Source: an uncultured Christensenella sp. (lineage in GTDB: Bacteria; Bacillota; Clostridia; Christensenellales; UBA1750). Taken from it: a stretch of DNA of 64,000 bases. The position numbers and the translations under genes are program-made. The notes beneath the pieces were generated by a model. It worked only from the letters and a program-made list of their open reading frames with translations, made no database searches and had not been told where the DNA came from. The stretch covers positions 3,628 through 67,627 of the forward strand of contig CAJJNQ010000004.1 of assembly GCA_905193155.1 (NCBI GenBank), in the 5' to 3' direction. Positions 3,958 through 21,709 of this stretch are shown here, piece after piece; positions within the stretch are counted from its first letter, which is position 1; every line of letters starts with the position of its first letter.

Positions 3958-4506
3958 TCAGGGGCGCATTTTGGCGTAAAGAAGGGCATGAAATTTGCCC
4001 GCGGGCGTGGAAACTTCTCCGTTCCGCAGATAGGTAAAGCCGCATTTTTCAATCACGCGGCGGGATTGCGTATTGAAGTCAAAGTGCGCAATGGTCAGAT
4101 AATCGCAGCCCGCGCCGTAAAAGCAGTAGGCCATCGCGGCCTTCATCGCCTCCGGCATCAGCCCCCGCCCCCAATGGTCGCGGCTGAGCACATAGCCGAT
4201 CTCCCGGCCGCGCAGCGCGGCGCAGGATGCGTCCGGCTCGAAGGAAAGCTCCTCGATCCCCAGCGACCCGACGACCTTGTGCGCATCGGCAAGCTCCAGC
4301 GCAAAGGTCTTTTTTTCTGCGATAAACATCGAAAGAATGGCTGCGCTTTCCTCCATGGATTGGTGCGGCAGCCAGCCCGCCATTTGTCCTACGCCGTCCA
4401 CGCGGGCGTATTCGTTAAAATCGGTGAGATCCTTTTGCTCGAACGGGCGCAGGATCAGCCGTGCTGTGGTCAGGCGCACAGAGCTTATGTCGATGGCAGC
4501 GTTCAT
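3958..4506 (-). CDS. GNAT N-acetyltransferase, RimJ/RimL-like
   Basis: 182 aa. RLILRPFEQKDLTDFNEY, then GYVLSRDHWGRGLMPEA and SRRVIEKCGF, typical of the RimJ/RimL subgroup. Confidence 0.8.
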   Translation of the reverse strand: MNAAIDISSVRLTTARLILRPFEQKDLTDFNEYARVDGVGQMAGWLPHQSMEESAAILSMFIAEKKTFALELADAHKVVGSLGIEELSFEPDASCAALRGREIGYVLSRDHWGRGLMPEAMKAAMAYCFYGAGCDYLTIAHFDFNTQSRRVIEKCGFTYLRNGEVSTPAGKFHALLYAKMRP

Positions 4507-4740
4507 GCGGCCGTCCCCTTTCCGGCTTGTGCGGGTTTGTCAATCATACCCGGAATTTTTCCCAAGATTAACAATACGCCAAATCGCGTGCGATGTCAAT
4601 ATGCGAAAAAGCGCCGTGCATTCTGCCGAAAAGCGGCGTTTGTTTCTGCCGCCGAACGACAAGGAACGCAATTTGCATCCGTTAACATGAAAATACATAT
4701 TTTCCATTTCATTTGCAGAGCAAAAAAGGAGGGCGGGCGC

Positions 4741-6816
4741 ATGGCGGAGGTTGCGAAAAAGCGCGCGATGCGGGTGTGGAGCATGAACACGGGGAAGCGG
4801 GAGCCGCTGTTTGACGGCGTCAAAATAGAAGAAAATTGGCAAAGCGCGCTGGAAAGCCCGACAGGGATCAGCCTGCGGCGGGGAATCCCGGTGCTGGCGG
4901 TCTGTCTCTTTGCCGGACAGGGGAAACTTTCGGACGGGGCGATGCCCTTCGCGCCGGCGCTGCTAGCGGGCGCGATGATGTGCGGCCGCTCCGTGGGCTA
5001 CGCCGCGGCGGGCTGCGCGGTGGGGGCGCTGTTGGCGGGTTCCCCCGGCACGGCGCTGGCGTGCGCGCTGCTGCTGCTTTTGTGGGTGATTCTGCGGTGC
5101 TTGAACCTCACGCCCAACGATCTGACCTGCGTCGCTGCGGCGGGGATTACGTCCTATGCGCTGCCTGCGCTTTATGCCGTGACGATGCAGGATCAACTCA
5201 CCGCCGCGGTGGGCGCGGTGACGGCGGCGGTGCTGGCGCGGCTCTATGCCGCGGCGCTGCGGGTGAAGCTGAACGGGCGCGAGCTGCTCAGCCCGGAGGA
5301 GATCATCAGCCTGTCGCTGCTGGCCGCGGGCGTGCTGACGGGCTTCCGAAGCATGGAAATCTGCGGCGTATCGCCGGTGATTTCGGCGCTGCTGCTGCTC
5401 AACCTCGGCGCGGGGTATCTGGGCGGCGTGGGGATCGGTGCGGCGGTGGGTGCGCTGACGGGGCTGATGCTCGGCGTGACCCAGCCCGTGCAGCCGTATC
5501 TATGCGTGGGGCTGGCGCTGTCCGGCCTGCTGCCGGGGCTGTTTTCGCCACTTGGGCGCTGGGGTGCGGCTGCGGCGCTGCCGGTGGCGCTTGTGCTGGC
5601 GGGTGCGATGGACGCGCGGTTCCTGACGGTGCAGCGGGCGATCGAGGGCGCGGCGGCAGGGCTTGCCTTCCTGCTGATTCGGCCGCAGGTTTGGGAGCGG
5701 ATGCGCCGTTTCGTGCGGCGGGAGGAGCAGGTGCGGGCCGGGGCGGTGCTCTCGCGCGAGGATCTGCGCGTGGAGGTGCGCGGCAAGGTGCAGGAATACG
5801 CCGCGCTCTACGGCCGCATGGCGCGGACGCTGGCAGGCGCGGGCGGACAATATGCCGCCGTCAGCTCCGCGCTGCACGCCGTGGCCAACGATCTGTCCGT
5901 CACGGTGAGCGAACAGGAGCAAAAGACCCGCGAGATTGCGCAGGCGCTGGATCTGGCGCACATCCGCGTTGAGAGCGTGCAGGCGCAGCGCGTGGGGGAG
6001 AAGCAGCGGGTGCAGATCTGCTGGCAGTGCAGGCAACGCGACGGATTGTGCGATAAAAGGCTGGTGCGCGTTGTGTCGTGTGCGGCGGGTGTGCCGCTGC
6101 GCATCCGGCCGACGGGCGTCTGTCCCCGCGAGGGAAGCTGCCGACTGACGCTGGAGGAGGCCTGCAACTTTGAGGTCAGCGCGGGCTTTGCCTCCCGAAC
6201 GCCGGACGGGCAGCCCTGCGGCGATACGCTGACCACCGTGCAGCTGCCGGAGGGGCAGTACATGATGGCGCTGGCGGACGGCATGGGGCACGGCGAGCGC
6301 GCGCAGGCCGAAAGCCGTGCCGCGGTGGATCTGATGGAGGATTTCCTGCTGGCGCGGTTTGAGCCGGAGGCGGCGCTGACGGGGGTCAACGACCTGCTGC
6401 TGCACAAAAACCCGGAGGAGAGCTTCACGACCATGGATTTGTCGCTGATCGACTTGACGCACGGCACGCTGCGCGCGATGAAGATCGGCGCGGCCGATTC
6501 CTATATCCGGCGCGGGCGGCGGGTGCTGTCCGTCACGGGCGACGCGCTGCCCATGGGCATTTTGGAAAAGGTGCGCCCGAGCGTGACGCAGATGCAGCTG
6601 CAGGACGGCGACGTGCTGGTGATGCTGTCCGACGGCGTGGCCGACGCGATGGGCGGGGACGAAATGTGGCTTACCCGCGAAATCCTGATGATGGATGTGC
6701 GCTCGCCCGAAAGCGCCGCGCGCAGGCTGCTGGCCGACGCTGCCGCAGCAGGGCATCCGCAGGACGACATGACCGTGGGCGTGCTGCGCATCGTCCAACG
6801 CGGGGCGCACGGCTGA
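4741..6816 (+). CDS. spoIIE: stage II sporulation protein E (polytopic membrane domain plus PP2C phosphatase)
   Basis: ATG at 4741 follows aaggagg. About 300 aa of hydrophobic segments, then a PP2C domain (MMALADGMGHGERAQ..., MLSDGV, DDMTVGVLRI). The 942-aa track ORF starting at 3988 overlaps the GNAT gene and is not used. Confidence 0.85.
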   Translation: MAEVAKKRAMRVWSMNTGKREPLFDGVKIEENWQSALESPTGISLRRGIPVLAVCLFAGQGKLSDGAMPFAPALLAGAMMCGRSVGYAAAGCAVGALLAGSPGTALACALLLLLWVILRCLNLTPNDLTCVAAAGITSYALPALYAVTMQDQLTAAVGAVTAAVLARLYAAALRVKLNGRELLSPEEIISLSLLAAGVLTGFRSMEICGVSPVISALLLLNLGAGYLGGVGIGAAVGALTGLMLGVTQPVQPYLCVGLALSGLLPGLFSPLGRWGAAAALPVALVLAGAMDARFLTVQRAIEGAAAGLAFLLIRPQVWERMRRFVRREEQVRAGAVLSREDLRVEVRGKVQEYAALYGRMARTLAGAGGQYAAVSSALHAVANDLSVTVSEQEQKTREIAQALDLAHIRVESVQAQRVGEKQRVQICWQCRQRDGLCDKRLVRVVSCAAGVPLRIRPTGVCPREGSCRLTLEEACNFEVSAGFASRTPDGQPCGDTLTTVQLPEGQYMMALADGMGHGERAQAESRAAVDLMEDFLLARFEPEAALTGVNDLLLHKNPEESFTTMDLSLIDLTHGTLRAMKIGAADSYIRRGRRVLSVTGDALPMGILEKVRPSVTQMQLQDGDVLVMLSDGVADAMGGDEMWLTREILMMDVRSPESAARRLLADAAAAGHPQDDMTVGVLRIVQRGAHG

Positions 6817-8366: not shown

Positions 8367-8879
8367 ATGAATCCTATTGTGACCATTAAGATGAAAAACG
8401 GCGATGTGATGAAGATCGAGCTGTATCCCGAAACGGCGCCCAACACCGTGGCGTCCTTTGTCAAGCTCGTGCAGGACGGCTTTTACAACGGCCTGGGCTT
8501 CCATCGCGTCATTCCCGGCTTTATGATTCAGGGCGGCGACCCGGATGCGACCGGCATGGGCGGCCCCGGCTTCACCATCAAGGGCGAGTTCCGCGCCAAC
8601 GGCGTGATCAACCCCCTCAAGCACACCCGCGGCGTGATCTCCATGGCGCGCACGCAGATGCCCAACTCCGCAGGCTCCCAGTTCTTCATCATGCACGCGG
8701 ACGCGCCGTATCTGGACGGCCAGTACGCCGCCTTCGGCAAGGTGATTGAGGGCATCGAGGCGGTGGATCACATTGCGGATCTGGAAACCGACTATATGGA
8801 TCGCCCCACCAAGTACCCCGTGATGGAAGAAGTCACCGTCGAAACCTTCGGCGAGGAATACAAGCCGGAGCGCAAGTAA
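8367..8879 (+). CDS. ppiB: cyclophilin-type peptidyl-prolyl cis-trans isomerase
   Basis: FHRVIPGFMIQGGDP, SMARTQMPNSAGSQFFI, FGKVIEG. 170 aa. Confidence 0.9.
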   Translation: MNPIVTIKMKNGDVMKIELYPETAPNTVASFVKLVQDGFYNGLGFHRVIPGFMIQGGDPDATGMGGPGFTIKGEFRANGVINPLKHTRGVISMARTQMPNSAGSQFFIMHADAPYLDGQYAAFGKVIEGIEAVDHIADLETDYMDRPTKYPVMEEVTVETFGEEYKPERK

Positions 8880-8900
8880 TTCCCGGAAAAAGTGAATTCA

Positions 8901-8934
8901 AAAAAGAGCGCATCGCCAAGACGTGCTCTTTTTG
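8901..8934. terminator. hairpin terminator between convergent ppiB and aminotransferase genes
   Basis: agagcgc...gtgctct stem with one mismatch, flanked by an A-run and a T-run. Confidence 0.5.
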
Positions 8935-8959
8935 CTTTAGATAGGGCGCGGGAAGGGGC

Positions 8960-10129
8960 TCACTTTCGCGCGGGGATCTTTTTGCGCAGATCGGCCAGGC
9001 GGTTGAGCGCCTCGGTGAGGGTGTCGTCCTTCTTGGCAAAGTGCAGGCGGATCAGGTGGTTGACCGGTTCGCGGAAGAAGCTGGAGCCGGGCACCGCGCC
9101 CACGCCAACATCGCGCGCCAGCACCTCGCAGAACTCCAGGTCGGAATCAAAGCCGAATTCCGAAATGTCGAGCATGACATAATACGCGCCCTGCGGCTCG
9201 GTGTGGGGGATTTTGAGGTCGCGCAGACCTTGCAGGAACAGATCGCGCTTGCCGGTGTATTTGTCCTGAAGCCATTTGTAATACTCCGGGCCGAAGCGCA
9301 GGCCGGTGACGGCGGCTTCCTGCAGCGGCGCAGCCGCGCCAACGGTCAGAAAATCGTGCACCTTTTTGGCCACGTCGATGATTTCCGGCGGGGCGATGAT
9401 GTAGCCCAAACGCCAGCCGGTGATGGAATAGGTCTTGGAAAGCGAACTGCACGAGATGGTGCGCTCCCACATGCCGGGCAGCGTGGCAAAATAGGTGTGC
9501 ACGTTGGGCGCGTAGACGATGTGCTCGTAAACTTCGTCCGTGATGACATAGGTATCGTATTTGACGGCCAGCTGCGCGATGGTTTCCAGCTCCTGACGGG
9601 TAAAGACCTTGCCGCAGGGGTTGGACGGGTTGCACAGGATCAGCGCCTTGGGGTTCTGGCGGAAGGCGTCCTCCAATTCGTTGGGATCAAAGTTGAATTC
9701 CGGCGGGTGCAGCGGGACGTAGATCGGCTCCGCGCCGGAGAGGATGGTATCCGCGCCGTAGTTTTCATAGAAGGGCGAGAACACGATCACCTTGTCGCCG
9801 GGGTCGGCCACCGTCATCATCGCGGCCATCATCGCCTCGGTGCTGCCGCAGGTGACGACGATTTCTCCGTTGGGGTCGATGGTGCGGCCCATCAGGCGGC
9901 TCTGCTTTTCGGCCAGCGCCTGGCGGAAGTTCTGCGCGCCCCAGGTGATGGCGTACTGATGGAAATCCTCGTGCGCCACCTCGGCCAGGCGGTCGAGAAT
10001 CTCCTTGGGCGGCTCGAAATCCGGGAAGCCCTGGGAGAGGTTCACCGCGCCGTATTGCAGCGAAACGCGCGTCATGCGGCGGATGACGGAATCGGTAAAG
10101 CCCTTGGTGCGATCAGAAAGTTTCTTCAT
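8960..10129 (-). CDS. class I/II PLP aminotransferase, YbdL / KAT-like (methionine aminotransferase-like)
   Basis: NLSQGFPDFEPP, TDEVYEHIVY, SLSKTYSITGWRLGY, KVHDFLTVGAAAPLQ, LIRLHFAKKDDTL. These blocks match my recollection of E. coli YbdL. The start overlaps the upstream gene by 17 nt. Confidence 0.85.
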   Translation of the reverse strand: MKKLSDRTKGFTDSVIRRMTRVSLQYGAVNLSQGFPDFEPPKEILDRLAEVAHEDFHQYAITWGAQNFRQALAEKQSRLMGRTIDPNGEIVVTCGSTEAMMAAMMTVADPGDKVIVFSPFYENYGADTILSGAEPIYVPLHPPEFNFDPNELEDAFRQNPKALILCNPSNPCGKVFTRQELETIAQLAVKYDTYVITDEVYEHIVYAPNVHTYFATLPGMWERTISCSSLSKTYSITGWRLGYIIAPPEIIDVAKKVHDFLTVGAAAPLQEAAVTGLRFGPEYYKWLQDKYTGKRDLFLQGLRDLKIPHTEPQGAYYVMLDISEFGFDSDLEFCEVLARDVGVGAVPGSSFFREPVNHLIRLHFAKKDDTLTEALNRLADLRKKIPARK

Positions 10130-11510
10130 GTTCTTCTCCCCATAGATAAGACTTTTTGTCGTTGAGTATGTGCCTGGGATCGAGCGCGGTCTTGATGGCG
10201 TTCATCGCGGCAAGGTTTTCCTTCGGCGTTTCCCGCAGGTAATAGCGCCGTTTGGTCAGCCCGATGCCGTGTTCGCCGGAGGTCACGCCGCCCAGCTCAT
10301 AGGCCTTGCGGTAGGCAAGATCCATGTTTGCGTGCATCTCGCGCTGCCAGGTTTCCTCGTCGCGGCCGTCCCGCACCACGCACAGGTGCACGTTGCCGTC
10401 GCCCGCGTGGCCGAAGCTGACCATGCGCATGCCGGTCTTGAACTGCAAATCGTTTATGAAAGTGATGAAATCCGCGGTTTTGTCGATCGGCACCACGATA
10501 TCCACCGGTTCCTGCTCGGAGATCGCTTCCACCGCCTTGACCAGCGCGCCGCGCACTTTCCAGATGTCCGCGGCCTGCTGCGCGTCGGCCAGCACCATGC
10601 AGTCCATGGCGCCGCTCTGCTCCGCCAGCGCTTCGATGCGCCTGAGGTTTTCCTGCACTTCGCCCTCGTGCCCGTCCAGCGTCACCAGGATGTAGGAACC
10701 GGCTCCCTTGCAGGGATAGGTCACGCCGGAATAGCGCTCGCCCCATTCGACCACGCTGCGCTCCATGAATTACAGCGCGGTGGGGTTAAGTCCTGCGCGC
10801 AGAATCGTCAGCACGCTGCGGATGCCGCTTTTGAGGTCGCGGTAGGGGAGCAGGAGGCTCAGGCTGGTTTCGGGCTTGGGGATCAGGCGCAGGATGCAGC
10901 GGGTGATGACGCAGAGCGTGCCCTCCGAGCCGATGAACAGGTTCTTGAGCGACAGGCCGCTGGCGTCCTTGACGTTCTTGCCGCCGACGGTGAGCACCGT
11001 GCCGTCCGCCTGCACCGCGGTAAGTCCCCGGACGTAGTCCCGCGTCACGCCGTATTTGACGGCGCGCATGCCGCCCGCGTTGGTGCTGATGTTGCCGCCG
11101 ATGGAGGCGGTCTTCTCGCCCGGATCGGGCGGATAGAACAGCCCGCGCGCTTCGACATATGCTTGCAGATCCTGGAGCAGCAGCCCCGGCTCCACGGTCA
11201 CGGTCATGGTGTCCGCATCCAGCTCCAGCACGCGGTTCATCTGCGAAAGGTCGAGGATGATGCCGCCGTCCAGCGGCACGGTGGAGCCGACGAGGTTCGT
11301 ACCCGCCCCGCGCGGCGTGACGGGGATGTTGCGGGCATAGGCGTATTTCATCACGGCGCTGACCTCTTCGGTGCTGCGCACGAAAACCAACGCCGATGCC
11401 TTGCCGCGCAGGCGGCCGAGCGTATCGCTCAGGTATTCCGGCGCGATGTCCTCGTCGAAGCGCAGCCGGGTCTCATCCGGGATGAGGGCGCGCAGTGCGT
11501 TTCTATCCAT
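10113..11510 (-). pseudogene. GlcD-like FAD-linked D-2-hydroxyacid dehydrogenase/oxidase interrupted by an in-frame TAA
   Basis: The N-terminal FAD-binding part (MDRNALRAL..PRGAGTNLVGS..GSEGTLCVITR) ends LNPTAL-TAA at 10770-10772. The same frame continues FMERSVVEW... to 10113. The stop replaces the Glu of the conserved ALEFMD block. Confidence 0.75.
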
Positions 11511-11545
11511 GGGGAGCGGCCTCCTTTTTGTCGTTCTGAATGTAG

Positions 11546-11575
11546 GAAAAATCCCCGCCGGAGGCTCCGGCGGGG
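11546..11575 (-). terminator. rho-independent terminator after metQ
   Basis: 10-bp stem ccccgccgga/tccggcgggg (11553-11562 / 11566-11575) with a T-run on the minus strand. Confidence 0.7.
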
Positions 11576-11590
11576 CAGAGGAGGGGGGCC

Positions 11591-12445
11591 TTACTTGCCG
11601 GCCAGCAGGTCCTGATCCCAGCCGACCTTGATGAAGTAGCCGCCGAAGGTTTCGTTGAACACCTTCTCGGTCGCGTCGCTCTGGAAGGCTTCGATGACCT
11701 TCTTGTATACCGCAGCCTTGGCGGGATCGTTCACGTCCGCGGTGCGGGCGGCGATCAGGTTCCAATACTTGGCTTCATCCAGCACATCGTCCTTATAGAT
11801 CGCTTCATCGGTCTTAAGGCCGAAGTCCAGCGCGTAGTTGCCGTTGACGATGCCCGCGGTCACGTCGTCGAGCACGGAGGGGATGGTGTTGGCCTTGAGC
11901 TCCTTGATGGTGATCTGCTTGTTGTAGGTTTCGATATCGTCCAGCGTGGGATTGAAGCCCGCGTCGGCCTTCAGGGCGATCAGGCCGGAAGCCGCCAGCA
12001 CCTTCAGCGCACGGCCGCCGTTGGTCACATCGTCGGGGATGGCGACGGTATCGCCGTCCTGAATCTCGTCCACGGAGGAAACCTTGTGGGAATAGAGGTT
12101 CAGCGGGATGATGAAGGTGTAGCCGACGGTTTCGATTTCGTAGTTGTACTGCGCGATTTCGTTGTCCAGGTAGATCTGATGCTGGAAGGCGTTCAGGTCA
12201 ATATCGCCGCTGTTGAGCGCGTTGTTCGGGGTCACATAGTCGGAGAACTGCACGATCTGAAGGTCGATGCCTTCGGCCTTCAGCGCTTCCTGCGCGGGCT
12301 TCCAGAGGTCCTCGTAGATGCCGCCGACCACGCCGAGCTTGACGCTGGCGGTACCGGCTTCGGTCTTGGCGGGAGAGCAGGCGGTCAGCGACAGGGCTAG
12401 GGCGGCAAAGGCCAGTAGCAGGGCGAAAATTCTCTTGAGCTTCAT
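11591..12445 (-). CDS. metQ: methionine ABC transporter substrate-binding lipoprotein (NlpA/MetQ family)
   Basis: Signal peptide with lipobox LSLTAC. Body typical of MetQ (KLGVVGG..., NAFQH). Confidence 0.9.
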   Translation of the reverse strand: MKLKRIFALLLAFAALALSLTACSPAKTEAGTASVKLGVVGGIYEDLWKPAQEALKAEGIDLQIVQFSDYVTPNNALNSGDIDLNAFQHQIYLDNEIAQYNYEIETVGYTFIIPLNLYSHKVSSVDEIQDGDTVAIPDDVTNGGRALKVLAASGLIALKADAGFNPTLDDIETYNKQITIKELKANTIPSVLDDVTAGIVNGNYALDFGLKTDEAIYKDDVLDEAKYWNLIAARTADVNDPAKAAVYKKVIEAFQSDATEKVFNETFGGYFIKVGWDQDLLAGK

Positions 12446-12495
12446 GGGGGGATTTCCTCCTATTTCACATTAGATAAGTTGTTGTCGGGATGTTT

Positions 12496-13464
12496 TTACA
12501 GCGTCAGCGCGAGGTCGAAGTTTTCCTGCATCGTCTTGCAGGAGGCGTCGAACTGCGCCTGTTCTTCGGGCGTGAGGTTGAGCTCGATGATCTGTTCCAC
12601 ACCGTCCGCGCCCAGCACGGCGGGCACGCTGGCATAGACGTTGTGCTGGCCGTACTGTCCGTCCAGCAGCACCGACACCGGCAGGATGCGGTGCTCATCG
12701 CCGAACAGCGCGCGGGTCACTTCCGCAATCGCCGCGCCGATGCCGAACTCCGTGGAGCCCTTGCCGCCCAGTATGATCCAGCCGCCTGCCTTGCCGGCCG
12801 CCGCGATGGCGGGGAGGTCGAGCTTGCCGTAGGTATCGGGATATTCCTCCCGCAGCTGGGAGAGCGGCTTGCCTGCGATGGTGACGGCGGACCAGGGAAC
12901 CATCTGGCTTTCGCCGTGTTCGCCCAGCGCGTAGGCCTGAATCGACTTCTGGTCGATGCCGATCTCTTCCGCAATGGCGCGGCGGAGTCTGGCGGAGTCC
13001 AGCGTGGTGCTGGTGGAGAGGATGCGCTTGGGGTCCCAGGAGAGCGCGTGCTGCAAATAGTGCGTCACCACGTCCGCGGGGTTGGAGATGTTGAGGATGA
13101 TGCCGTCAAAGCCGGAGGATTTGATGTTCTTGGCGATTTCCTTGACGATTTCGATGGTCTGGCGCAGCGTGTCCATGCGGGTCTGGCCCTTGCTTATGTC
13201 GGGCAGGGGACCGGCGGCGACGATGAGCAGCAGCGCGTCCTTGGCGTCGGAATAATCTCCGGCGCGAACGATGGCGCGCCGGGGGAGATAAACCGTGGAG
13301 TCATATAGATCGAGCGCCTGCGCGACGGCCTTCTTTTCGTCCACGTCGATGTAGACGATCTCCTCCGCAAGACCCTGCGAGATCAGCGCGTAGCCCGCGT
13401 GGGAACCGACGTGTCCTGCGCCGATGATGACGATTTTTCGCTTCTGAATATTCATAAAAATCAT
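12496..13464 (-). CDS. NAD-dependent L-2-hydroxyacid dehydrogenase (L-lactate/L-hydroxyisocaproate dehydrogenase family)
   Basis: IVIIGAGHVGS Rossmann motif, DSARLR substrate Arg, LGEHGES catalytic His. The substrate-specificity loop is atypical (AAGPLPDISKGQTRMDTL). Confidence 0.85.
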   Translation of the reverse strand: MIFMNIQKRKIVIIGAGHVGSHAGYALISQGLAEEIVYIDVDEKKAVAQALDLYDSTVYLPRRAIVRAGDYSDAKDALLLIVAAGPLPDISKGQTRMDTLRQTIEIVKEIAKNIKSSGFDGIILNISNPADVVTHYLQHALSWDPKRILSTSTTLDSARLRRAIAEEIGIDQKSIQAYALGEHGESQMVPWSAVTIAGKPLSQLREEYPDTYGKLDLPAIAAAGKAGGWIILGGKGSTEFGIGAAIAEVTRALFGDEHRILPVSVLLDGQYGQHNVYASVPAVLGADGVEQIIELNLTPEEQAQFDASCKTMQENFDLALTL

Positions 13465-13489
13465 GCTCCTTATCGTAAAGCGGAAAGCC

Positions 13490-14170
13490 TTAGTGCCTGT
13501 TCTTCTTGACCACGAGGTTGCCGAAGAGCTGCAGGATGCTCACCAGGATGAACACCACGATCACCGTCACCCACGTCACATCCGTCATGCCGCGGTCGTG
13601 GCCGTAGCGGATGGCGAAATCACCCAGGCCGCCGGAGCCGACCGCGCCCGCCATGGCGGTCAGGCCGACCAGGGAGATGGCGGTGATGGTGGTGGCTCGC
13701 GCGATGGCGGCAACGCCTTCGCGAAGATACACGCGGAAGATGATCTCCATCGGGCTGGAACCCATCGAAAGCGCTGCTTCGACCAGACCCTTATCGGTCT
13801 CCGCCAGCGCGCTTTCCACCTGGCGGGAGAAGAAGGGCACCGTGCCCAGCACCAGCGGCACGATTGCGCCGGGAACATCAATCGCGGTTCCCATGATCGC
13901 GCGGGAGAGCGGGATCACCCACGTCAGCAGGATGATGAAAGGGATCGAGCGGAAGAAGTTGATTACCTTGTCCAGCACCTGATAGAGCACTTTGTTTTCC
14001 AATATGCCGCCCGGACGGGTCACAATCAGCACCACGCCCAGCACCAGCCCCAGCACGAACGCGATGGATCCGGACCAGGCCACCATGATCAGCGTATCGC
14101 CGATCGCCTTGCCGAACGCCGGCAGGCGCTCCATGACGTTAGGCAGATACCGATTCAGAATCTCCTGCAT
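13490..14170 (-). CDS. metI: methionine ABC transporter permease
   Basis: 226 aa polytopic protein with a MetI-type EAA loop (VEAALSMGSSPMEIIFRVYLREG). Overlaps metN by 32 nt. Confidence 0.9.
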   Translation of the reverse strand: MQEILNRYLPNVMERLPAFGKAIGDTLIMVAWSGSIAFVLGLVLGVVLIVTRPGGILENKVLYQVLDKVINFFRSIPFIILLTWVIPLSRAIMGTAIDVPGAIVPLVLGTVPFFSRQVESALAETDKGLVEAALSMGSSPMEIIFRVYLREGVAAIARATTITAISLVGLTAMAGAVGSGGLGDFAIRYGHDRGMTDVTWVTVIVVFILVSILQLFGNLVVKKNRH

Positions 14171-15197
14171 CCAGGATCACCTCCACTCCGACGTTCTTGC
14201 TTCTCAGATCCTCCAGCGCCTCGTCCATCTTGTCCTGCGGGCCGGAGAGAATGCCCACCGTACCGCCGATGGGCGCGTTCTGCACGATTTCAATATCGGC
14301 AAAGATGATGTTGAGGATCACACCGTATTTTTTCGTCATGGTCGAGATCAGCGGCTCGGAGGCGTTGCGCTCCACATAGGAGAGCCGCACGATCCGCTCG
14401 CCGGGCTTGAGCGCCACCACGGGGGATTTCGCTGCAATGAGGTCCTCGATCTTCTGCAAATTCGAGGTGGTCTTGATGAAGCTGCGCGTCAGTTCCTCCT
14501 TCGGGGAGGCGAACACGCTGAAGACCTCGCCCTCTTCCACCACGCGGCCGTGATCCATCACCGCCACGCGGTTGCAGATCTCCTTGACCACCGCCATCTC
14601 GTGCGTGATGACCACCAGCGTAATGCCCAGTTCGCGGTTGAGCCTTTCCAGCAGTTTTAAGATCGACTTGGTGGTCTGCGGGTCGAGCGCGCTCGTCGCC
14701 TCGTCGCACAGCAGAATGTCGGGGTCGTTCGCCAGCGCTCGGGCGATGGCGGCGCGCTGCTTCTGTCCGCCGGAAAGCTGGGAGGGATAGGCGTTTTCCT
14801 TATCCGCAATGCCCACCAGATCGAGCAGCTTTCTCACTTTTTCCGCGATCTGGTCTTTGCGAAGGCCGCTGCCCTTCAAGGGATAGGCCACGTTGCCGAA
14901 AATCGTTCGGGAGGGCATCAGGTTGAAGTGCTGGAAGATCATGCCGATCTTCCTGCGCGCCTGACGCAGCTCCTTGGCCGGCATTCGCGTCAGCTCCTTC
15001 CCGTCGATGCGGACCGAACCCTCTGTCGGCCGCTCGAGCAGGTTGATACATCGCACCAGCGTGGATTTTCCCGCGCCGGAGAAACCGATGATGCCGAATA
15101 CATCGCCGTTGCGAATCGTCAGGCTCACGTTATTGACCGCGTGAACCTCTCGCCCGGCGTCTGCAAAGGTCTTGCTGATCTGTTCAAGCTCGATCAC
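14139..15197 (-). CDS. metN: methionine ABC transporter ATP-binding protein with C-terminal NIL domain
   Basis: GFSGAGKST, LSGGQKQR, LLCDEATSALD, then a C-terminal NIL/ACT-like domain (ILNIIFADIE..GGTVGIL). GTG start with agaggaggg RBS. Confidence 0.9.
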   Translation of the reverse strand: MIELEQISKTFADAGREVHAVNNVSLTIRNGDVFGIIGFSGAGKSTLVRCINLLERPTEGSVRIDGKELTRMPAKELRQARRKIGMIFQHFNLMPSRTIFGNVAYPLKGSGLRKDQIAEKVRKLLDLVGIADKENAYPSQLSGGQKQRAAIARALANDPDILLCDEATSALDPQTTKSILKLLERLNRELGITLVVITHEMAVVKEICNRVAVMDHGRVVEEGEVFSVFASPKEELTRSFIKTTSNLQKIEDLIAAKSPVVALKPGERIVRLSYVERNASEPLISTMTKKYGVILNIIFADIEIVQNAPIGGTVGILSGPQDKMDEALEDLRSKNVGVEVILDAGDSESVSA

Positions 15198-15279
15198 CCT
15201 TGCACCCTCCTCTCTTTAACGTGAGCATAGTCTAGCACCACGGTAGGTTTTCGTCCAATACGCAAACAATATACTGAAA

Positions 15280-15296
15280 TATAGATTGAATCTATA
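15280..15296. promoter_or_regulatory. 17-bp perfect palindrome TATAGATTGAATCTATA (MET-box-like operator) upstream of metN
   Basis: Perfect 8-1-8 inverted repeat about 85 nt upstream of the metN start. Resembles the streptococcal MtaR/MetR MET box (TATAGTTtnaAACTATA, recalled from memory). Confidence 0.5.
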
Positions 15297-15311
15297 ACTG
15301 ATGCGCAGACA

Positions 15312-15346
15312 TAAAAAATCCCATCCGGAAGGATTTTCCGGATGGG
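15312..15346 (-). terminator. rho-independent terminator after the LysR gene
   Basis: Stem cccatccgga/tccggatggg with a T6 run on the minus strand. Confidence 0.7.
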
Positions 15347-15365
15347 TCAATCGCTCTTTTTGGAC

Positions 15366-16301
15366 TTATTTCCCGCTGCGCGCGGCGTGACGGAGATAGG
15401 TTTGCAGTTCGCAGATATATTGTTTGCCAATGTCAGAAATCAGCATATCCTGCCGGACGATGTAGCCGATGTCCATGCTGCTCGCGCCGTCCACGGAATC
15501 AGCGCAGAAGGGTACCGCCACATAGTCGTCGCCGTTGAGCTCTTCGCAGATGATGCCGGAACAGAGGGTGTAGCCGTTCAGGCCGATCATCAGGTTCAGC
15601 ATCGTGGCGCGGTCGTTGGCCTTGATGGTGCGGGTGTATTCGTTGGTGCTGAGGATTTCCTCCGCAAAATAGAAGGAGCTTGCATCGCCCTGCTCAAAGG
15701 AAAGGCAGGGATATTCGCGCAATTCGTCAAACGTGACGGAGGCCTTGCCCGCCAGCGGATGCCCCGTCCAGAGGTAGACGTAGGCGCGGCAGTCGATCAG
15801 GTGATGAAATTCCAGCCGGTTGGCGCGCAGCAGCTTCATCAGCACCGCGCGGTTGAAATCTGAAAGGTAAAGAATGCCGATCTCGCTTTTGAGCGTCGCC
15901 ACGTCGGAGATCACGTCGCGCGTCTTGGTCTCGCGGATCGCAAATTCGTACTGCGAGGTATCAAAGCGCTTCACCAGCTCCACAAACGCCTTGACGGCGA
16001 AGGAATAGTGCTGCGTGGACACGCCGAACTTGCGCTTGATGTTTTTTCCGCCGCTGTATTTATCCATCAGGCTTTCGTATTGATGGTAGAGCTGACGGGC
16101 ATAGAGCAGGAATTCCGCGCCGTCCTGCGTTGGGGTCACGCCGCGGCCGGAGCGGTTGAACAGCACGATGCCCAGCTCCTTTTCCAGCTCCCGCACCGCG
16201 CTGGTGAGCGAGGGCTGCGAAAGATACAGCTGCTCGGCGGCGCGGTTGAGCGAGCCCGCCTCCGCGATGACGAGGACATAATGGAGCTGCTGCAGCGTCA
16301 T
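15366..16301 (-). CDS. LysR-family transcriptional regulator, MtaR/CpsY-like
   Basis: N-terminus MTLQQLHYVLVIAEAGSLNRAAEQLYLSQPSLTSAVRELEKELGIVLFNR closely parallels the IQQLHYI..QPSLS..LE.E.GI.IF.R pattern of streptococcal MtaR/CpsY (from memory). 311 aa. Confidence 0.85.
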   Translation of the reverse strand: MTLQQLHYVLVIAEAGSLNRAAEQLYLSQPSLTSAVRELEKELGIVLFNRSGRGVTPTQDGAEFLLYARQLYHQYESLMDKYSGGKNIKRKFGVSTQHYSFAVKAFVELVKRFDTSQYEFAIRETKTRDVISDVATLKSEIGILYLSDFNRAVLMKLLRANRLEFHHLIDCRAYVYLWTGHPLAGKASVTFDELREYPCLSFEQGDASSFYFAEEILSTNEYTRTIKANDRATMLNLMIGLNGYTLCSGIICEELNGDDYVAVPFCADSVDGASSMDIGYIVRQDMLISDIGKQYICELQTYLRHAARSGK

Positions 16302-16370
16302 GGTCTTTCTCCTCCTTGCGGTTGGATCTCATCCAAAAGTTTAGCATACCGCGCGCGCCGCCGTCAACGC

Positions 16371-16399
16371 TTGACATCCGCTGTGCGCGTTTGTATAAT
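16371..16399 (+). promoter_or_regulatory. sigma-A type promoter for the M20 peptidase gene
   Basis: TTGACA (16371-16376), 17-nt spacer, TATAAT (16394-16399). Confidence 0.6.
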
Positions 16400-16434
16400 G
16401 CTCCCGAATGAATCCGAAAGGGGCGAAAGGCCAT

Positions 16435-17547
16435 ATGATTCAGCAAAAACGTCTGATGGATCTCTTTGCCGGACTGGTTTCGATTGATAATCCTTCCCTG
16501 CACGAGGCGGAGATGTGCGCCCGGCTGAAGGAAGAGCTGCGTGCCCTCGGCGCGGAGCCGCGCGAGGACGATACCGCCGCGAAGATCGGCGGCAACGCGG
16601 GCAATCTCTATGCCTATTTTGAGGGCGAGGAGGGGATGGAGCCGCTGCTGCTCTCCGCGCACATGGATTCCGTGGAGCCCGCCTGCGGCAAGCGCGCCGT
16701 GTTCCGCGAGGACGGAACCATCACCTCCGACGGCACGACCGTGCTCGGCGCGGACTGCCTATCCGGCGTGGCCGCCATTTTGGAGGCGCTGCGCTCGGTG
16801 AAGGAATCCGGCGCAAAGCACCGCCCCATCGAGGTGCTGTTCGACGCGGCGGAGGAGACCTACTGCGCGGGCATTCAGCGCTATGATTTTGCATCCCTGC
16901 GCTCGAAAGAAGCCTATATTTTCGACCTGACCGGGCGCATTGGCGGCGCGGCGGTGCAGGCCCCCACCATTCTTTCCTATAAAGCGACCTTCCATGGCCG
17001 CGCGGCACACGCCGCCTTCTCGCCGGAAAACGGCATCCACGCCATTCAGGCCGCAGCCTGCGCGGTGAGCAAAATCCGGTGCGGCCGGGTGGGCGATACC
17101 ACCGTCAACGTCGGCACGATCTCCGGCGGCAGCGCCGATAACGTCGTGCCCGAAACCTGCGTCGTCACCGGCGAGGTGCGCTCCTTTGACGATGCAAGCG
17201 CCCGCGCACAGCTGGCCGTCGTGCGCAAGGCCATCGAGCGGGGCGCGGAGCAGCTCGGTGCGGCGGTGGACTTTGAAGACAAAGCGCTCTGCCGCGCGTA
17301 TCTGGTGGATAAAAACGAGCCCGTCGTGCGACGGTTTGAAGCCGCCTGCAAGACCCTCGGCGTGGAGCCGGAGCTGGTCAGCACCTACGGCGGCAGCGAC
17401 AACAACCACTTCTTCCATCACGGCGTGCGCGGCGTCGTGGTGGCCTGTGGCATGAACAACTGCCATTCCTGCGGGGAATACAGCTCGGCGGCCGACCTCA
17501 CCGCCGCGGCCAAGCTCGTTGAAACCCTGATCCTGTCCCGCGATTGA
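16435..17547 (+). CDS. M20-family metallopeptidase (peptidase T-like)
   Basis: LLLSAHMDSVEP, DCLSGVAA, FDAAEE metal-ligand context. ATG 16435 is preferred over 16408 because the consensus promoter predicts a transcription start near 16406. Confidence 0.8.
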   Translation: MIQQKRLMDLFAGLVSIDNPSLHEAEMCARLKEELRALGAEPREDDTAAKIGGNAGNLYAYFEGEEGMEPLLLSAHMDSVEPACGKRAVFREDGTITSDGTTVLGADCLSGVAAILEALRSVKESGAKHRPIEVLFDAAEETYCAGIQRYDFASLRSKEAYIFDLTGRIGGAAVQAPTILSYKATFHGRAAHAAFSPENGIHAIQAAACAVSKIRCGRVGDTTVNVGTISGGSADNVVPETCVVTGEVRSFDDASARAQLAVVRKAIERGAEQLGAAVDFEDKALCRAYLVDKNEPVVRRFEAACKTLGVEPELVSTYGGSDNNHFFHHGVRGVVVACGMNNCHSCGEYSSAADLTAAAKLVETLILSRD

Positions 17548-17779: not shown

Positions 17780-17869
<90 letters not shown>

Positions 17870-17893: not shown

Positions 17894-17984
17894 GGAGAAG
17901 TACCCAAGAGGCCGAAGGGGCTCCCCTGCTAAGGGAGTAGGTCGGGTTACCGGCGCCCGGGTTCAAATCCCGGCTTCTCCGCCA
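17894..17984 (+). tRNA. tRNA-Ser (anticodon GCU), CCA encoded
   Basis: Acceptor stem GGAGAAG/CTTCTCC, anticodon stem-loop CTCCC-CTGCTAA-GGGAG, long variable arm, TTCAAAT T-loop, 3' CCA. Confidence 0.9.
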
Positions 17985-18579: not shown

Positions 18580-19326
18580 ATGAAAAAAGAGCTTTTGCAG
18601 GTCAAGGATCTTCACGTTCGCGTGGAGGAGAAGGAAATTCTCCACGGCGTGAATTTGAGTATTGGTAAAGATGAAACCCATGTGCTGATGGGGCCGAACG
18701 GCACCGGCAAGTCTACGCTGGGCTATGCCGTGACCGGCAACCCCGCCTATGAGGTGACGGAGGGCAGCATCGTCTTCGACGGCGAGGACATCACGAACCT
18801 GCCCGTCAACGAGCGCGCCAGGAAGGGGATTTTCCTTTCCTTTCAGAACCCGCTGGAGGTGCCGGGCGTGACGCTGAGCGCCTTCATCCGCTCCGCACTG
18901 GAGCAGAAAACCGGCAGCCGCCTGCGCCTTTGGGACTTCAAAAAGAAGCTGGCGGAAACCATGAGGCTGTTGAACATGGATGAATCCTATGCCGAGCGTG
19001 ACCTCAACGTCGGTTTCTCCGGCGGCGAAAAGAAAAAGGCCGAAATTCTCCAGATGCTGATGCTGGAACCGAAGCTGGCCATACTGGACGAGACCGATTC
19101 CGGCCTGGATGTGGACGCGGTGCGCACGGTTTCTCAGGGCGTGCAGCTCTACCGCGAGCGCGTGCATGGCTCACTTCTCATCATCACCCACAGCACGCGC
19201 ATTCTGGAGGCGCTGCATGTGGACAAGACCCACGTCATGGAAAACGGCGTGATCGTCCGCGAGGGCGGCGCGGAGCTGGTCGACGAGATCAACGCGCACG
19301 GCTTCGGCGGCATCAAGGCACAGTGA
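18580..19326 (+). CDS. sufC: Fe-S cluster assembly ATPase SufC
   Basis: GPNGTGKST, FSGGEKKK, ILDETDSGLD. 248 aa; first gene of the suf cluster. Confidence 0.95.
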   Translation: MKKELLQVKDLHVRVEEKEILHGVNLSIGKDETHVLMGPNGTGKSTLGYAVTGNPAYEVTEGSIVFDGEDITNLPVNERARKGIFLSFQNPLEVPGVTLSAFIRSALEQKTGSRLRLWDFKKKLAETMRLLNMDESYAERDLNVGFSGGEKKKAEILQMLMLEPKLAILDETDSGLDVDAVRTVSQGVQLYRERVHGSLLIITHSTRILEALHVDKTHVMENGVIVREGGAELVDEINAHGFGGIKAQ

Positions 19327-19344
19327 GAAGGCGGGTGAAGCAGC

Positions 19345-20751
19345 ATGAATGAAAAGACGAGAGTGGAGGACATCGACCGCAGCGTCTACGACATCCGCGA
19401 CGAGGAGCACGACGCCTACCGCATGGAGGCGGGCCTGACGCCGGAGATCATCGACAAGCTCTCCAAGGAGAAGAACGATCCCGTCTGGATGCAGCAGTTC
19501 CGCCTGCAATCCCTGCAAATCTATAACGAGATGAAAACGCCGGATTGGGGTCCCTCGCTGGAAGGGCTGGATATGGAGCACATCGCGACCTACGTCCGTC
19601 CCAACTCCAAGATGCAGAACGACTGGAAAAACGTGCCGCAGGACATCAAGGATACCTTTGAGCGCCTGGGCATCCCGCAGGCCGAGCGCAAATCGTTGGC
19701 GGGCGTGGGCGCGCAGTACGATTCCGAGCTGGTCTATCACAACGTCCGCCGGGAGGTGGCGGAGCAGGGCGTGGTCTATACCGACATGGAGAGCGCCATG
19801 AAGGGTGAATATGCCGACATGGTCCGTAAGTATTTCATGAAGCTGGTCACGCCCCGCGATCACAAGTTTGCGGCGCTGCACGGCGCGGTGTGGTCGGGCG
19901 GCTCGTTCGTCTATGTGCCCAAGGGCGTGCAGGTGTCCATCCCGCTGCAGTCCTATTTCCGCCTCAACGCCAAGGGCGCGGGGCAGTTTGAGCACACGCT
20001 CATCATTGTGGACGAGGGCGCGAGCCTGCACTTTATCGAGGGCTGTTCCGCACCAAAATACAACGTCGCCAACCTGCACGCGGGGTGCGTCGAGCTGTAT
20101 GTCAAAAAGGGCGCCAAGCTCCGCTATTCCACCATTGAAAACTGGTCGAAAAATATGTATAATCTCAACACCAAGCGCGCCCTGGTGGAGGAGGACGGCG
20201 TGATCGAGTGGGTGTCCGGTTCCTTCGGCTCCCATGTCGGCTGCCTGTACCCGATGAGCGTGCTCAAGGGCGACCGTTCCCGCATGGAGTTCACCGGCGT
20301 GACCTTTGCCGGCGCGGGGCAGAACCTTGATACCGGCGCAAAGGTCGTCCACATCGGCAAGGATACCAGCTCCTTTATGAACACCCGCTCCATCAGCAAA
20401 AGCGGCGGCATCAGCACCTTCCGCAGCTCCATCGTCGTGGAAAAGGGCGCCGGGGGCGCAAAGTCCTCGGTCTCCTGCCAGTCGCTGATGCTCGATTCCG
20501 AATCCCGTTCCGACACCATCCCCGCCATGGACATCCGCACGCGCGACGCTTCGATCGGCCATGAGGCCAAGATCGGCAGCATCAGCAACGACGCGATCTT
20601 CTACCTGATGAGCCGCGGCATGAACGAGGAGGACGCCCGTGCGCTGATCGTCAGCGGCTTTGCGGACAACGTCTCCAAGGAGCTGCCCGTCGAATACGCG
20701 GTGGAGATGAACAACCTGATCCGGCTGGAGATGAAGGGCAGCATCGGCTGA
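19345..20751 (+). CDS. sufB: Fe-S cluster assembly scaffold SufB
   Basis: 468 aa. FIEGCSAP, ENWSKNMYNLNTKRA, HEAKIGSIS. Typical SufB. Confidence 0.95.
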   Translation: MNEKTRVEDIDRSVYDIRDEEHDAYRMEAGLTPEIIDKLSKEKNDPVWMQQFRLQSLQIYNEMKTPDWGPSLEGLDMEHIATYVRPNSKMQNDWKNVPQDIKDTFERLGIPQAERKSLAGVGAQYDSELVYHNVRREVAEQGVVYTDMESAMKGEYADMVRKYFMKLVTPRDHKFAALHGAVWSGGSFVYVPKGVQVSIPLQSYFRLNAKGAGQFEHTLIIVDEGASLHFIEGCSAPKYNVANLHAGCVELYVKKGAKLRYSTIENWSKNMYNLNTKRALVEEDGVIEWVSGSFGSHVGCLYPMSVLKGDRSRMEFTGVTFAGAGQNLDTGAKVVHIGKDTSSFMNTRSISKSGGISTFRSSIVVEKGAGGAKSSVSCQSLMLDSESRSDTIPAMDIRTRDASIGHEAKIGSISNDAIFYLMSRGMNEEDARALIVSGFADNVSKELPVEYAVEMNNLIRLEMKGSIG

Positions 20752-20776
20752 CCCGAACGGGAAAGGAGAAAAACAC

Positions 20777-21709
20777 ATGGCAGAGAAAAAACAGATGATC
20801 CTGAACCGTTTGCCCGCGCCCACCTGGAACTGGCTCCGGGTCAACCGCACGGTGCTGGATTGGGAGAATGAAAACGAACTCGACCTGGGCGCGGTGGTCC
20901 GCAGCGTGCAGGGCAAGGAAAACGAGCCGCTGCGGCTTGAAATCCGCGGCGAGGGCGAATACAGCCGCAAGGACGTGGACGTGACGGCCGAGCCCGACAG
21001 CGCGGTCACGATCATCGAAACCTTCGGCGCGGAGCAGAACCTGCTCGTGCGCACGCACCTGACCGCGCGCCGCAACGCGACGATCCGTCTGGTGCAGATC
21101 CAGAACACGCAGGAAGGCTCTCGTCTCGTCAGCACCGTGGAGGGGGAATGCGAGGAAGGCGGCCGCATCGAGCTGTATCAGGTACTGGCGGGCAAGGGCG
21201 ACGTCTACGGCGACAGCAAGATCGAATTGAACGGCGACGGCGCAAGCTTTGAGGCCGAAACCGGTTATCTCGCCCGCAAGCAGCAGAAGGTGGATATCAA
21301 CCTCGTGGTCAACCACCGCGGCAAGCGCACCGAATGCGAGATCAACGCCGCAGGCGCGCTGATGGACGCGGCAAGCAAAATCTTTCGCGGCACGATCGAC
21401 TTTAAGCGCGGCGCGAGCGATTCCGTCGGTAACGAAAAGGAAACCGTGCTGATGCTGGGCGACGACGTGACCAACCGCACCGTGCCGCTCATCCTTTGCG
21501 CGGAGGAAAACGTGGTCGGCAACCACGGCGCGAGCATCGGCCAGTTGGACGACGAAACGCTGTTTTACTTTGAAAGCCGCGGCATCGGTCGGGATGTGGC
21601 GGAAAAGCTGCTGGCCAGGGCCTCGATCGAGCGCGTGGCGCGCCTGATCGGCGATGAAGAGGCGGAAGGGGCCGTCATGAATCTATTGGACGAGGAGCTG
21701 GGAAGATGA
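20777..21709 (+). CDS. sufD: Fe-S cluster assembly protein SufD (short form)
   Basis: SufB/D beta-helix C-terminus (HGASIGQLDDETLFYFESRGI) and its position after sufB. Confidence 0.85.
   Translation: MAEKKQMILNRLPAPTWNWLRVNRTVLDWENENELDLGAVVRSVQGKENEPLRLEIRGEGEYSRKDVDVTAEPDSAVTIIETFGAEQNLLVRTHLTARRNATIRLVQIQNTQEGSRLVSTVEGECEEGGRIELYQVLAGKGDVYGDSKIELNGDGASFEAETGYLARKQQKVDINLVVNHRGKRTECEINAAGALMDAASKIFRGTIDFKRGASDSVGNEKETVLMLGDDVTNRTVPLILCAEENVVGNHGASIGQLDDETLFYFESRGIGRDVAEKLLARASIERVARLIGDEEAEGAVMNLLDEELGR

Follow-up and report, generated by a model that had tools for sequence, protein, structure and literature searches.

A metNIQ gene cluster with embedded dehydrogenase and aminotransferase genes as a candidate operon for methionine analogue salvage in anaerobic bacteria

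The gene cluster and its occurrence

A stretch of 64,000 nucleotides (nt) from an uncultured Christensenella sp. (assembly GCA_905193155.1, contig CAJJNQ010000004.1, positions 3,628 to 67,627), called the window in the following, was analyzed. It carries on its minus strand a cluster of six genes, which combines a MetNIQ-type methionine transporter with two predicted 2-hydroxyacid dehydrogenases and an aminotransferase and is discussed here as a candidate operon for the scavenging of methionine and its hydroxy and keto analogues. The genes and their coordinates, a hairpin downstream of metQ, a 17-nt overlap of the last two genes, the aminotransferase motifs and an in-frame stop had been listed in a first-pass annotation made from the sequence alone, and all of them were found on this strand.

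The first gene, metN (14139..15197), codes for an ABC ATPase with a C-terminal NIL domain (PF00005, PF09383) and begins with a GTG start codon behind a GGAGG sequence. The best NCBIfam model of its product is TIGR02314 (MetN) with 402 bits, against a strict equivalog cut-off of 500. It is followed, with an overlap of 32 nt, by the permease gene metI (13490..14170), whose product matches PF00528 clearly and has NF008049 (MetI) as its top NCBIfam model (199 bits, cut-off 212). The third gene, termed ldh here, is located between metI and metQ and is predicted to encode an L-2-hydroxyacid dehydrogenase of the lactate dehydrogenase (LDH) family with the domains Ldh_1_N and Ldh_1_C. Its open reading frame (ORF) spans 13464-12496. 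Translation almost certainly begins at the ATG at 13455, which has an AAGGAG sequence 10 nt upstream and gives a protein of 319 amino acids (12496..13455) as in all homologues.

The gene metQ (11591..12445) encodes a substrate-binding lipoprotein of the NlpA family (PF03180) with the lipobox LTAC. Directly 3′ of it lies a G+C-rich hairpin with a 10-bp stem, including nine G-C pairs, and the T-run ATTTTT (11543..11575). The fifth gene (10113..11510) is predicted to code for an LctD-type, FAD-dependent D-2-hydroxyacid dehydrogenase (PF01565, FAD_binding_4; PF02913, FAD-oxidase_C) and is inactivated by a nonsense codon. It is called the flavoenzyme gene in the following. The last gene (8960..10129), which overlaps it, encodes a YbdL/MtnE-like class-I aminotransferase (PF00155). 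The overlapping or tight spacing of the genes implies that they are co-expressed.

The occurrence of the cluster was analyzed by a scan of one genome per species with an alignment of the Ldh subfamily as query, which gave at least 553 loci. Neighbouring genes were counted in the best 80 of these, each time among the loci with enough flanking DNA. The genes metN and metI lie immediately 5′ of ldh in 68 of 73 loci, and metQ lies immediately 3′ of it in 72 of 77. An aminotransferase gene is present in 59 of 70 loci and a flavoenzyme gene in 38 of 70, with both occurring together in 36 of 70. Thus the arrangement metN-metI-ldh-metQ-(lctD)-aminotransferase is found in one order and on one strand in nearly all of the 80 other species examined, while the flanks differ. 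Such a recurrence far exceeds chance and rules out that an ldh gene within metNIQ, next to the pair which the first-pass annotation had called GlcD and YbdL, is unique to this genome.

The cluster was found in two phyla, namely in Oscillospiraceae, in many Lachnospiraceae (Lacrimispora, Anaerocolumna, Roseburia, Oribacterium and L. phytofermentans), in Agathobaculum and Sedimentibacter as well as in rumen Treponema and Brachyspira. By exact-protein look-up, the six-gene set with an intact flavoenzyme was identified in Oscillibacter metagenome-assembled genomes (MAGs) and in Clostridium sp. W14A. The nearest relatives carry the names Oscillibacter or Oscillospiraceae. In the look-up loci, the flanks are unrelated to those of the window and comprise an Rrf2 regulator, a PALP-domain gene, an SDF transporter, a Cys/Met pyridoxal phosphate (PLP) enzyme and a second metNIQ set.

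One further locus, in a record labelled Bacteroidaceae bacterium (L008), has an identical synteny and an Ldh with 81% identity to that of Oscillospiraceae. Its source MAG is probably mis-binned or mislabelled.

The encoded proteins and their substrate pockets

The product of ldh exceeds the cut-off of the NCBIfam L-lactate dehydrogenase model TIGR01771 (323.8 vs. 303.55 bits), a model which is blind to position 102, and public databases name it L-lactate dehydrogenase. At position 102, canonical LDHs carry the Gln which specifies pyruvate, and malate dehydrogenases carry an Arg (PMC4109310). The canonical loop AG-x-NQKPGETR with Gln102 (PMC4109310) was not found in Ldh. Its place is taken by AAGPLPDISKGQTR with an Ile at position 102, and the active-site loop AAGPLPDISKGQTRMD replaces AG(A/V)NQKPGETRLD with an insertion of 2 residues (0-2 when relatives are included). 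Within the subfamily, position 102 holds Ile in the window, whereas most relatives have Met and some have Leu there. In addition, helix alpha2G contains Gly-Gly-Trp in place of Ala-Ala-Tyr. The residues Arg109, Asp168, Arg171, His195 and Thr246 are kept, and the motifs QTR, LDSARLR and GEHGES align with LDH structures. The position of His188 is occupied by Gln, which suggests an enzyme without activation by fructose-bisphosphate.

A search of 1.84 billion cluster representatives for the Ldh signature (PLP...QTRMD / GGW) found it confined to representatives with at least 53% identity. Proteins with the canonical NQKPGETR / (A/S)AY combination are 31-39% identical to Ldh; between these two groups there are many other non-canonical loops. 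A grouping with the Gln102-bearing, ordinary lactate dehydrogenases, which the first-pass annotation had considered, was not seen. By these signatures Ldh is to be placed in a discrete, non-canonical L-2-hydroxyacid dehydrogenase subfamily rather than among the ordinary LDHs.

In this respect it resembles the poorly characterised "HicDH clade" (PMC4109310), in which residue 102 is neither Gln nor Arg and the length of the 102-109 loop is changed as well, while the catalytic residues Arg109, Asp168, Arg171 and His195 are kept in both. However, canonical LDH structures give higher scores with Ldh (up to 242 bits) than L-HicDH does (PDB 1HYH, 192 bits), and unlike L-HicDH, Ldh forms a subfamily of its own in the genomic context of a methionine transporter. 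A Bacillus LDH has reportedly been widened toward large hydrophobic 2-oxo acids by Wilks et al. in 1990; the changes are said to comprise Gln-Lys-Pro to Met-Val-Ser at positions 102-105 and Ala-Ala to Gly-Gly. The presence of equivalents of two of these changes in a natural subfamily argues for a bulky hydrophobic substrate of Ldh.

The closest structure of the flavoenzyme is LctD of A. woodii (PDB 7QH2_C), which it matches end-to-end with 455 bits; mouse LDHD follows with 218 bits. LDHD is a Mn-dependent general dehydrogenase of hydrophobic D-2-hydroxyacids, for which the metal and substrate residues and a hydrophobic subsite of four residues have been defined (PMC10589216). These positions were mapped, by alignment only, onto 46 cluster-linked copies of the flavoenzyme with 55-77% identity, and the resulting pocket signature LRVPHHCEH is invariant in all of them. 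The residues Arg, His, His, Glu and His, which bind metal and substrate, are retained as in LDHD and LctD. The subsite for the side chain consists of Leu, Val, Pro and Cys in the cluster copies, of Leu, Leu, Glu and Tyr in LctD and of Val, Trp, Ser and Ile in LDHD. Such a pocket, conserved, uncharged and less bulky than that of LctD, would suit a substrate that is larger than lactate.

An identity as glycolate oxidase (GlcD) was rejected, as TIGR00387 gives 367 bits with a cut-off of 568, glcE and glcF are missing from every neighbourhood and the best relative is LctD. On these grounds the enzyme is assigned to the LctD/LDHD-type D-2-hydroxyacid dehydrogenases. LctBCD of A. woodii (LctD, PDB 7QH2) contains its closest solved relative, and the catalytic motifs are the same. 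In contrast to LctBCD, there are no adjacent EtfAB genes, and three of the four subsite positions differ (Val, Pro, Cys vs. Leu, Glu, Tyr).

If the database names are followed, both proteins would be ordinary L- and D-lactate dehydrogenases for pyruvate and lactate, which lie by coincidence among methionine transporter genes and next to a housekeeping aminotransferase. The score of Ldh above the L-LDH equivalog cut-off, the name L-lactate dehydrogenase in all databases and the similarity of the flavoenzyme to the lactate dehydrogenase subunit LctD agree with such a role. However, the gene order is strictly conserved in hundreds of species of two phyla, and Ldh has lost both Gln102 and the Ala-Ala pair. 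Moreover, the flavoenzyme has an invariant pocket, unlike LctD, and no lactate permease, racemase or etf genes lie nearby in the annotated neighbourhoods. We regard a lactate function as highly improbable.

In the window, the flavoenzyme gene is interrupted by an in-frame TAA (10770-10772) at the conserved Glu of the motif PTAL-E-FMER, which reads PTAIEFMER in LctD of A. woodii. The frame is intact in 46 other loci and in a metagenome contig (L088) with the same flanks and 98.9% identity over 7.3 kb. This contig carries GAA at the site of the stop and an intact gene of 465 amino acids. The two flavoenzyme genes differ by 9 synonymous and 3 non-synonymous codons, the stop included. Selenocysteine insertion or read-through was rejected, as the codon is TAA and not TGA, replaces a conserved GAA and is absent from the 98.9%-identical strain. 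By this comparison the stop either arose very recently as a nonsense mutation or is a sequencing error, and it is not a recoding event.

Short N- and C-terminal remnants of the flavoenzyme gene were found between metQ and the aminotransferase gene in three further loci (L039 7015-7212, L042 9951-10186 and L064 9978-10097), which belong to a Lachnospiraceae MAG, Agathobaculum hominis and L. phytofermentans. From these remnants it follows that the D-enzyme was probably part of the ancestral cluster and was lost independently in several lineages; the nonsense codon of the window fits the earliest stage of this trend. As other lineages carry deletion remnants, the D-branch is dispensable. The strain of the window is predicted to encode at most the L-branch, since its D-enzyme gene is knocked out and the D-branch would be genetically dead.

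Conservation within the cluster is highest for the aminotransferase, which shows 70-88% identity between species. Its top PDB match is YbdL of E. coli (1U08, 262 bits), followed by Rv0858c and the group of KAT and glutamine transaminase K. The four motifs named in the first-pass annotation are all there and align with the equivalent blocks of E. coli YbdL. The SKTY lysine, DEVY and the C-terminal LIRLHFAKK align with it. The best NCBIfam model is the generic PRK08912, with 367 bits under a cut-off of 498. Judged by its scores under the cut-offs of the curated methionine aminotransferase models, the protein represents a subfamily related to, yet distinct from, YbdL. In E. coli, YbdL itself is the methionine aminotransferase MtnE, which is repressed by MetJ (PMC3228920). 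The earlier assignments of the three enzymes hold and can be sharpened to a non-canonical L-2-hydroxyacid dehydrogenase, an LctD/LDHD-like and a YbdL/MtnE-like protein, with the label GlcD being dropped, as the flavoenzyme is not a glycolate oxidase.

The top PDB match of MetQ is E. coli MetQ (4YAH), with N229 of the latter being aligned. Seven methionine ligand residues have been defined in MetQ of N. meningitidis (PMC6739813), and all of these contact residues (Y81, F98, H100, Y103, R156, N213 and N238) are kept in the window. This signature is identical in 81 of 117 related MetQ matches, and 18 deviate solely by a Tyr-to-Phe exchange. Methionine itself is the best-supported candidate ligand of this pocket.

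Two observations on related binding proteins were made. In eight Brachyspira loci (L065, L067, L074, L075, L078, L080, L082 and L085), ldh is followed by 4-6 tandem metQ paralogues with 30-45% identity, some with the pocket variants His100 to Asn, Asn238 to Cys or Lys, and Tyr81 to Thr, which suggests the uptake of several related ligands. Furthermore, two relatives of Clostridium sp. W14A carry a second M20-metN-metI-metQ set directly upstream of the cluster (L006 2401-6158 and L007 1-3344). The binding protein of this second set has 27% identity and the non-methionine pocket signature LEHYRTV in place of YFHYRNN, and it may bind a different ligand.

The pockets also bear on the possibility that the operon turns hydrophobic 2-hydroxy and 2-oxo acids in general into amino acids, covering leucine, phenylalanine, norleucine-type and methionine analogues, with methionine as one of several products. 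Enzymes of the YbdL/KAT family act on multiple substrates, and the pocket changes in both dehydrogenases point to a larger hydrophobic side chain, not to methionine specifically. The 4-6 divergent metQ paralogues of Brachyspira with their small pocket variations agree with a broader range too, as do the broad relatives LDHD (PMC10589216) and L-HicDH (PMC4109310). However, the linkage in the 80 loci is always to MetNIQ-type transporters and never to transporters of branched-chain or aromatic amino acids, the main binding protein keeps its thioether-packing residues and the regulatory box upstream of metN, described below, is MET-box-like. Such a general conversion is considered unlikely.

Regulation and proposed function

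Directly upstream of the operon and on the same strand, a gene for a LysR-type regulator (15366..16301; HTH_1, LysR_substrate) was identified. Its product has only generic LysR matches in NCBIfam and no specific equivalog. Homologues with 57-77% identity adjoin the cluster in 24 of 80 species. The LysR transcript would end at a terminator-like hairpin on the minus strand (15320..15346), which consists of an 11-bp stem followed by ATTTTTT.

Between this hairpin and metN, at 83-99 nt before the start of the latter, lies the perfect 17-bp palindrome TATAGATTCAATCTATA (15280..15296). This sequence is MET-box-like (T-N11-A) and the sole match in the 64-kb window, where 0.11 matches are expected by chance. 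Of the 16 positions which are specified in the streptococcal MET box TATAGTTTnAAACTATA (PMC2627894), the palindrome agrees with 14. Ten related loci carry a similar box at about -93 to -98, and a LysR homologue was detected near 7 of these; in Treponema loci such boxes lie farther upstream. Control by a riboswitch or a T-box was rejected, as the Rfam scans (whole window at gathering threshold, 8800-16500 at E<=1) were empty upstream of metN, as they were for 24 related loci. The adjacent LysR regulator probably switches on the operon and would do so at the MET-box-like site.

In S. agalactiae, MtaR activates the operon metQ1-pdsM-metNP, in which the M20 peptidase gene pdsM is co-transcribed (PMC2627894). 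The streptococcal MtaR/MetR regulon (PMC2627894) and the locus described here share a LysR-type regulator, a 17-bp TATAG...CTATA palindrome in front of a MetNIQ-type operon and an M20 peptidase. The streptococcal metQ1-pdsM-metN-metP operon differs in that it lacks a dehydrogenase or aminotransferase gene, and its box differs at two symmetric positions. The M20 peptidase gene of the window (16408..17547, plus strand; PF01546, PF07687) is divergent from the LysR gene and PepT-like (TIGR01883, 262 bits with a cut-off of 274). Such a gene adjoins the cluster in 8 of 80 species and is possibly an accessory member.

From the terminator downstream of metQ, the first-pass annotation had concluded that there are at least two transcription units. 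The comparison of spacers speaks against a firm boundary at this hairpin. In many Lachnospiraceae and Sedimentibacter loci the next gene follows 4-50 nt after metQ and no hairpin is present. In Oscillospiraceae a GC-rich hairpin is common at this site, with a close ribosome-binding site and little room for a promoter, and in the window the hairpin and the next ribosome-binding site are about 35 nt apart. It probably acts as a partial terminator or as a stabiliser of the mRNA, which would set the expression ratios within one operon.

The cluster is proposed to be a methionine-scavenging operon that would also make L-methionine from the L-isomer (ancestrally the D-isomer, too) of 2-hydroxy-4-methylthiobutyrate and from the keto acid, a reading to which we give an even chance. 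MetNIQ would import L-methionine and, at lower affinity, close analogues. The LDH-family enzyme would oxidise L-2-hydroxy-4-methylthiobutyrate with NAD+ to 2-oxo-4-methylthiobutyrate, to which the LctD-type flavoenzyme, where intact, would also oxidise the D-isomer. The YbdL-like aminotransferase would then turn this oxo acid into L-methionine, and the LysR regulator would activate expression via the MET-box-like site. The substrates, the oxidative direction, the import of analogues and the regulatory logic are what we infer from the features described above.

The oxidative, anabolic direction is favoured by three considerations. The ancestral cluster probably contained an FAD enzyme of the LDHD/LctD family, whose members work oxidatively. 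A pair of L- and D-specific enzymes makes sense only if both converge on one oxo acid. Finally, an ATP-driven importer would be a poor investment for a mere redox sink.

The same proteins could serve methionine catabolism or nitrogen harvest, with methionine being transaminated to the oxo acid, which would yield glutamate or another amino acid, and Ldh reducing the oxo acid as a sink for NADH. Lactic acid bacteria reduce oxo acids derived from amino acids to hydroxy acids in this way, and NAD-dependent LDH-family enzymes thermodynamically favour the reduction of oxo acids. The unaltered methionine pocket of MetQ, with methionine as its best-supported ligand, and the dispensable D-enzyme are in line with this route as well. 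On the other hand, the ATP cost of an ABC importer for one NAD+ or amino group would be a poor bargain, and an oxidatively working FAD enzyme of the LctD type, probably part of the ancestral cluster, would be senseless if the pathway ran by reduction. In its genomic context and its operator the cluster is similar to regulons for the acquisition of methionine and cysteine, and it contains no exporter. We consider catabolism rather unlikely.

Several points weigh against the proposed salvage of hydroxy and keto analogues. The NAD-linked oxidation of 2-hydroxyacids is thermodynamically uphill and would have to be pulled by the transamination. A MetQ pocket adapted to hydroxy or keto analogues was sought in the window and in related MetQ proteins, and none was found, the methionine pocket being unaltered. 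The aminotransferase stays below the cut-offs of the models named methionine aminotransferase (NF006569, 337 vs. 420 bits; NF009079, 262 vs. 481 bits). About 45% of the clusters lack the D-enzyme, three retain remnants of it, and in the window its gene is interrupted by a stop. No Etf domains were found in the annotated cluster neighbourhoods, which cover the flanks only, and Rfam gave no S-box or T-box upstream of metN in the window or the 24 related loci. The case for methionine-dependent control is one of motif resemblance only.

In animals, DL-2-hydroxy-4-methylthiobutyrate is converted to L-methionine by an L-2-hydroxyacid oxidase and the mitochondrial D-2-hydroxyacid dehydrogenase LDHD, followed by transamination. 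The proposed bacterial salvage would likewise proceed by L- and D-specific oxidation to the oxo acid and subsequent transamination, and the D-enzyme is homologous to LDHD (218 bits). It differs by an NAD-dependent LDH-family enzyme instead of an FMN oxidase for the L-step, by an operon with an ABC importer and by an optional D-step. The idea of the same three chemistries as in animals, put forward in the first-pass annotation, thus applies by homology to the D-enzyme, whereas the L-step is analogous only. Its suggestion that both D- and L-analogues are converted could apply here to the L-branch at most, the D-enzyme being optional across species and knocked out in this strain.

For bacteria, it has been described that methionine auxotrophs of E. 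coli grow on alpha-hydroxy and alpha-keto analogues (PMC3274233). E. coli also holds, in YbdL/MtnE, the best structural relative of the aminotransferase, which is under methionine control. The shared logic would be that a non-standard methionine source is imported, made into the oxo acid and transaminated. However, the regulator in E. coli is MetJ, acting on the ybdH-ybdL pair, and the genes lie apart from the transporter operon. Furthermore, the analogue handled by E. coli MetNIQ is D-methionine and not a hydroxy acid.

A full-text literature search, which did not reach some key older papers, gave no bacterial gene cluster for hydroxy analogues and no ldh gene inside metNIQ; its output consisted of animal-nutrition and unrelated papers. 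The individual protein families are already known, and so is the three-step chemistry, from animals. New are the widely conserved operon, which joins these enzymes to metNIQ, and the two remodelled dehydrogenase subfamilies. The further proposal that a widespread, unrecognised pathway of anaerobic Firmicutes and spirochaetes (at least 553 species) salvages DL-2-hydroxy-4-methylthiobutyrate and its oxo acid to L-methionine is tentative, and we place it a little short of an even chance.

If the proposal is true, a specific role could be assigned to genes which carry the generic names "L-lactate dehydrogenase", "FAD-binding oxidoreductase" and "aminotransferase" in hundreds of anaerobes from gut, rumen and environment, and metagenome "LDH" counts in these taxa would exaggerate lactate metabolism. 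The use of methionine hydroxy and keto analogues by bacteria, physiologically known in E. coli, would have a genetic basis. Methionine hydroxy analogue is given to poultry and ruminants as a large-scale feed supplement, and the microbial genes that consume it in rumen and gut would be identified. It would also point to a cross-feeding of amino-acid hydroxy analogues among gut anaerobes. Finally, Ldh would be a case in which the natural evolution of LDH specificity followed a route once taken by protein engineering.

Neighbouring genes and further features of the window

A gene for a MetY-type O-acetylhomoserine sulfhydrylase / cysteine synthase (1602-2864) is located 6 kb downstream of the aminotransferase gene on the same strand, and its product exceeds the cut-off of TIGR01326 (563 vs. 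495 bits). Due to the presence of this gene, the organism is probably no simple homocysteine auxotroph. A similar Cys/Met PLP enzyme adjoins the cluster in Clostridium sp. W14A (L005, L006).

In two related loci, c-di-GMP-I riboswitches were found near the cluster (L005 12596-12687 and L059 1279-1365). The one in L005 lies just 3′ of the aminotransferase gene, before a gene for a sigma-70 region-4 protein. Both are probably unrelated to the operon.

On the plus strand of the window, two tRNA genes (17780-17865 and 17894-17981) are followed by a SUF iron-sulfur assembly cluster (18580-23350), which comprises sufC, two genes of the SufB/D family, a class-V aminotransferase gene (SufS-like) and a NifU-like gene. 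Two ORFs of 430 and 381 amino acids on the minus strand (23672-24964 and 24983-26128) have a gene-like codon bias and no match in Pfam or NCBIfam. They adjoin the gene of an 835-amino acid protein on the same strand (26475-28982), the only recognisable part of which is a C-terminal LuxR/GerE helix-turn-helix.

Finally, a dcw cluster of cell-division and wall genes extends from 32225 to about 46500 on the plus strand and contains mraW, ftsL, the gene of a penicillin-binding protein, murE, mraY, murD and a gene of the FtsW/SpoVE family. The gene sigG (51379-52152) and a gene for a SpoIIE-type phosphatase (3988-6816) are located on the same strand. Together with the dcw cluster, they would fit a spore-forming organism from the Clostridia.

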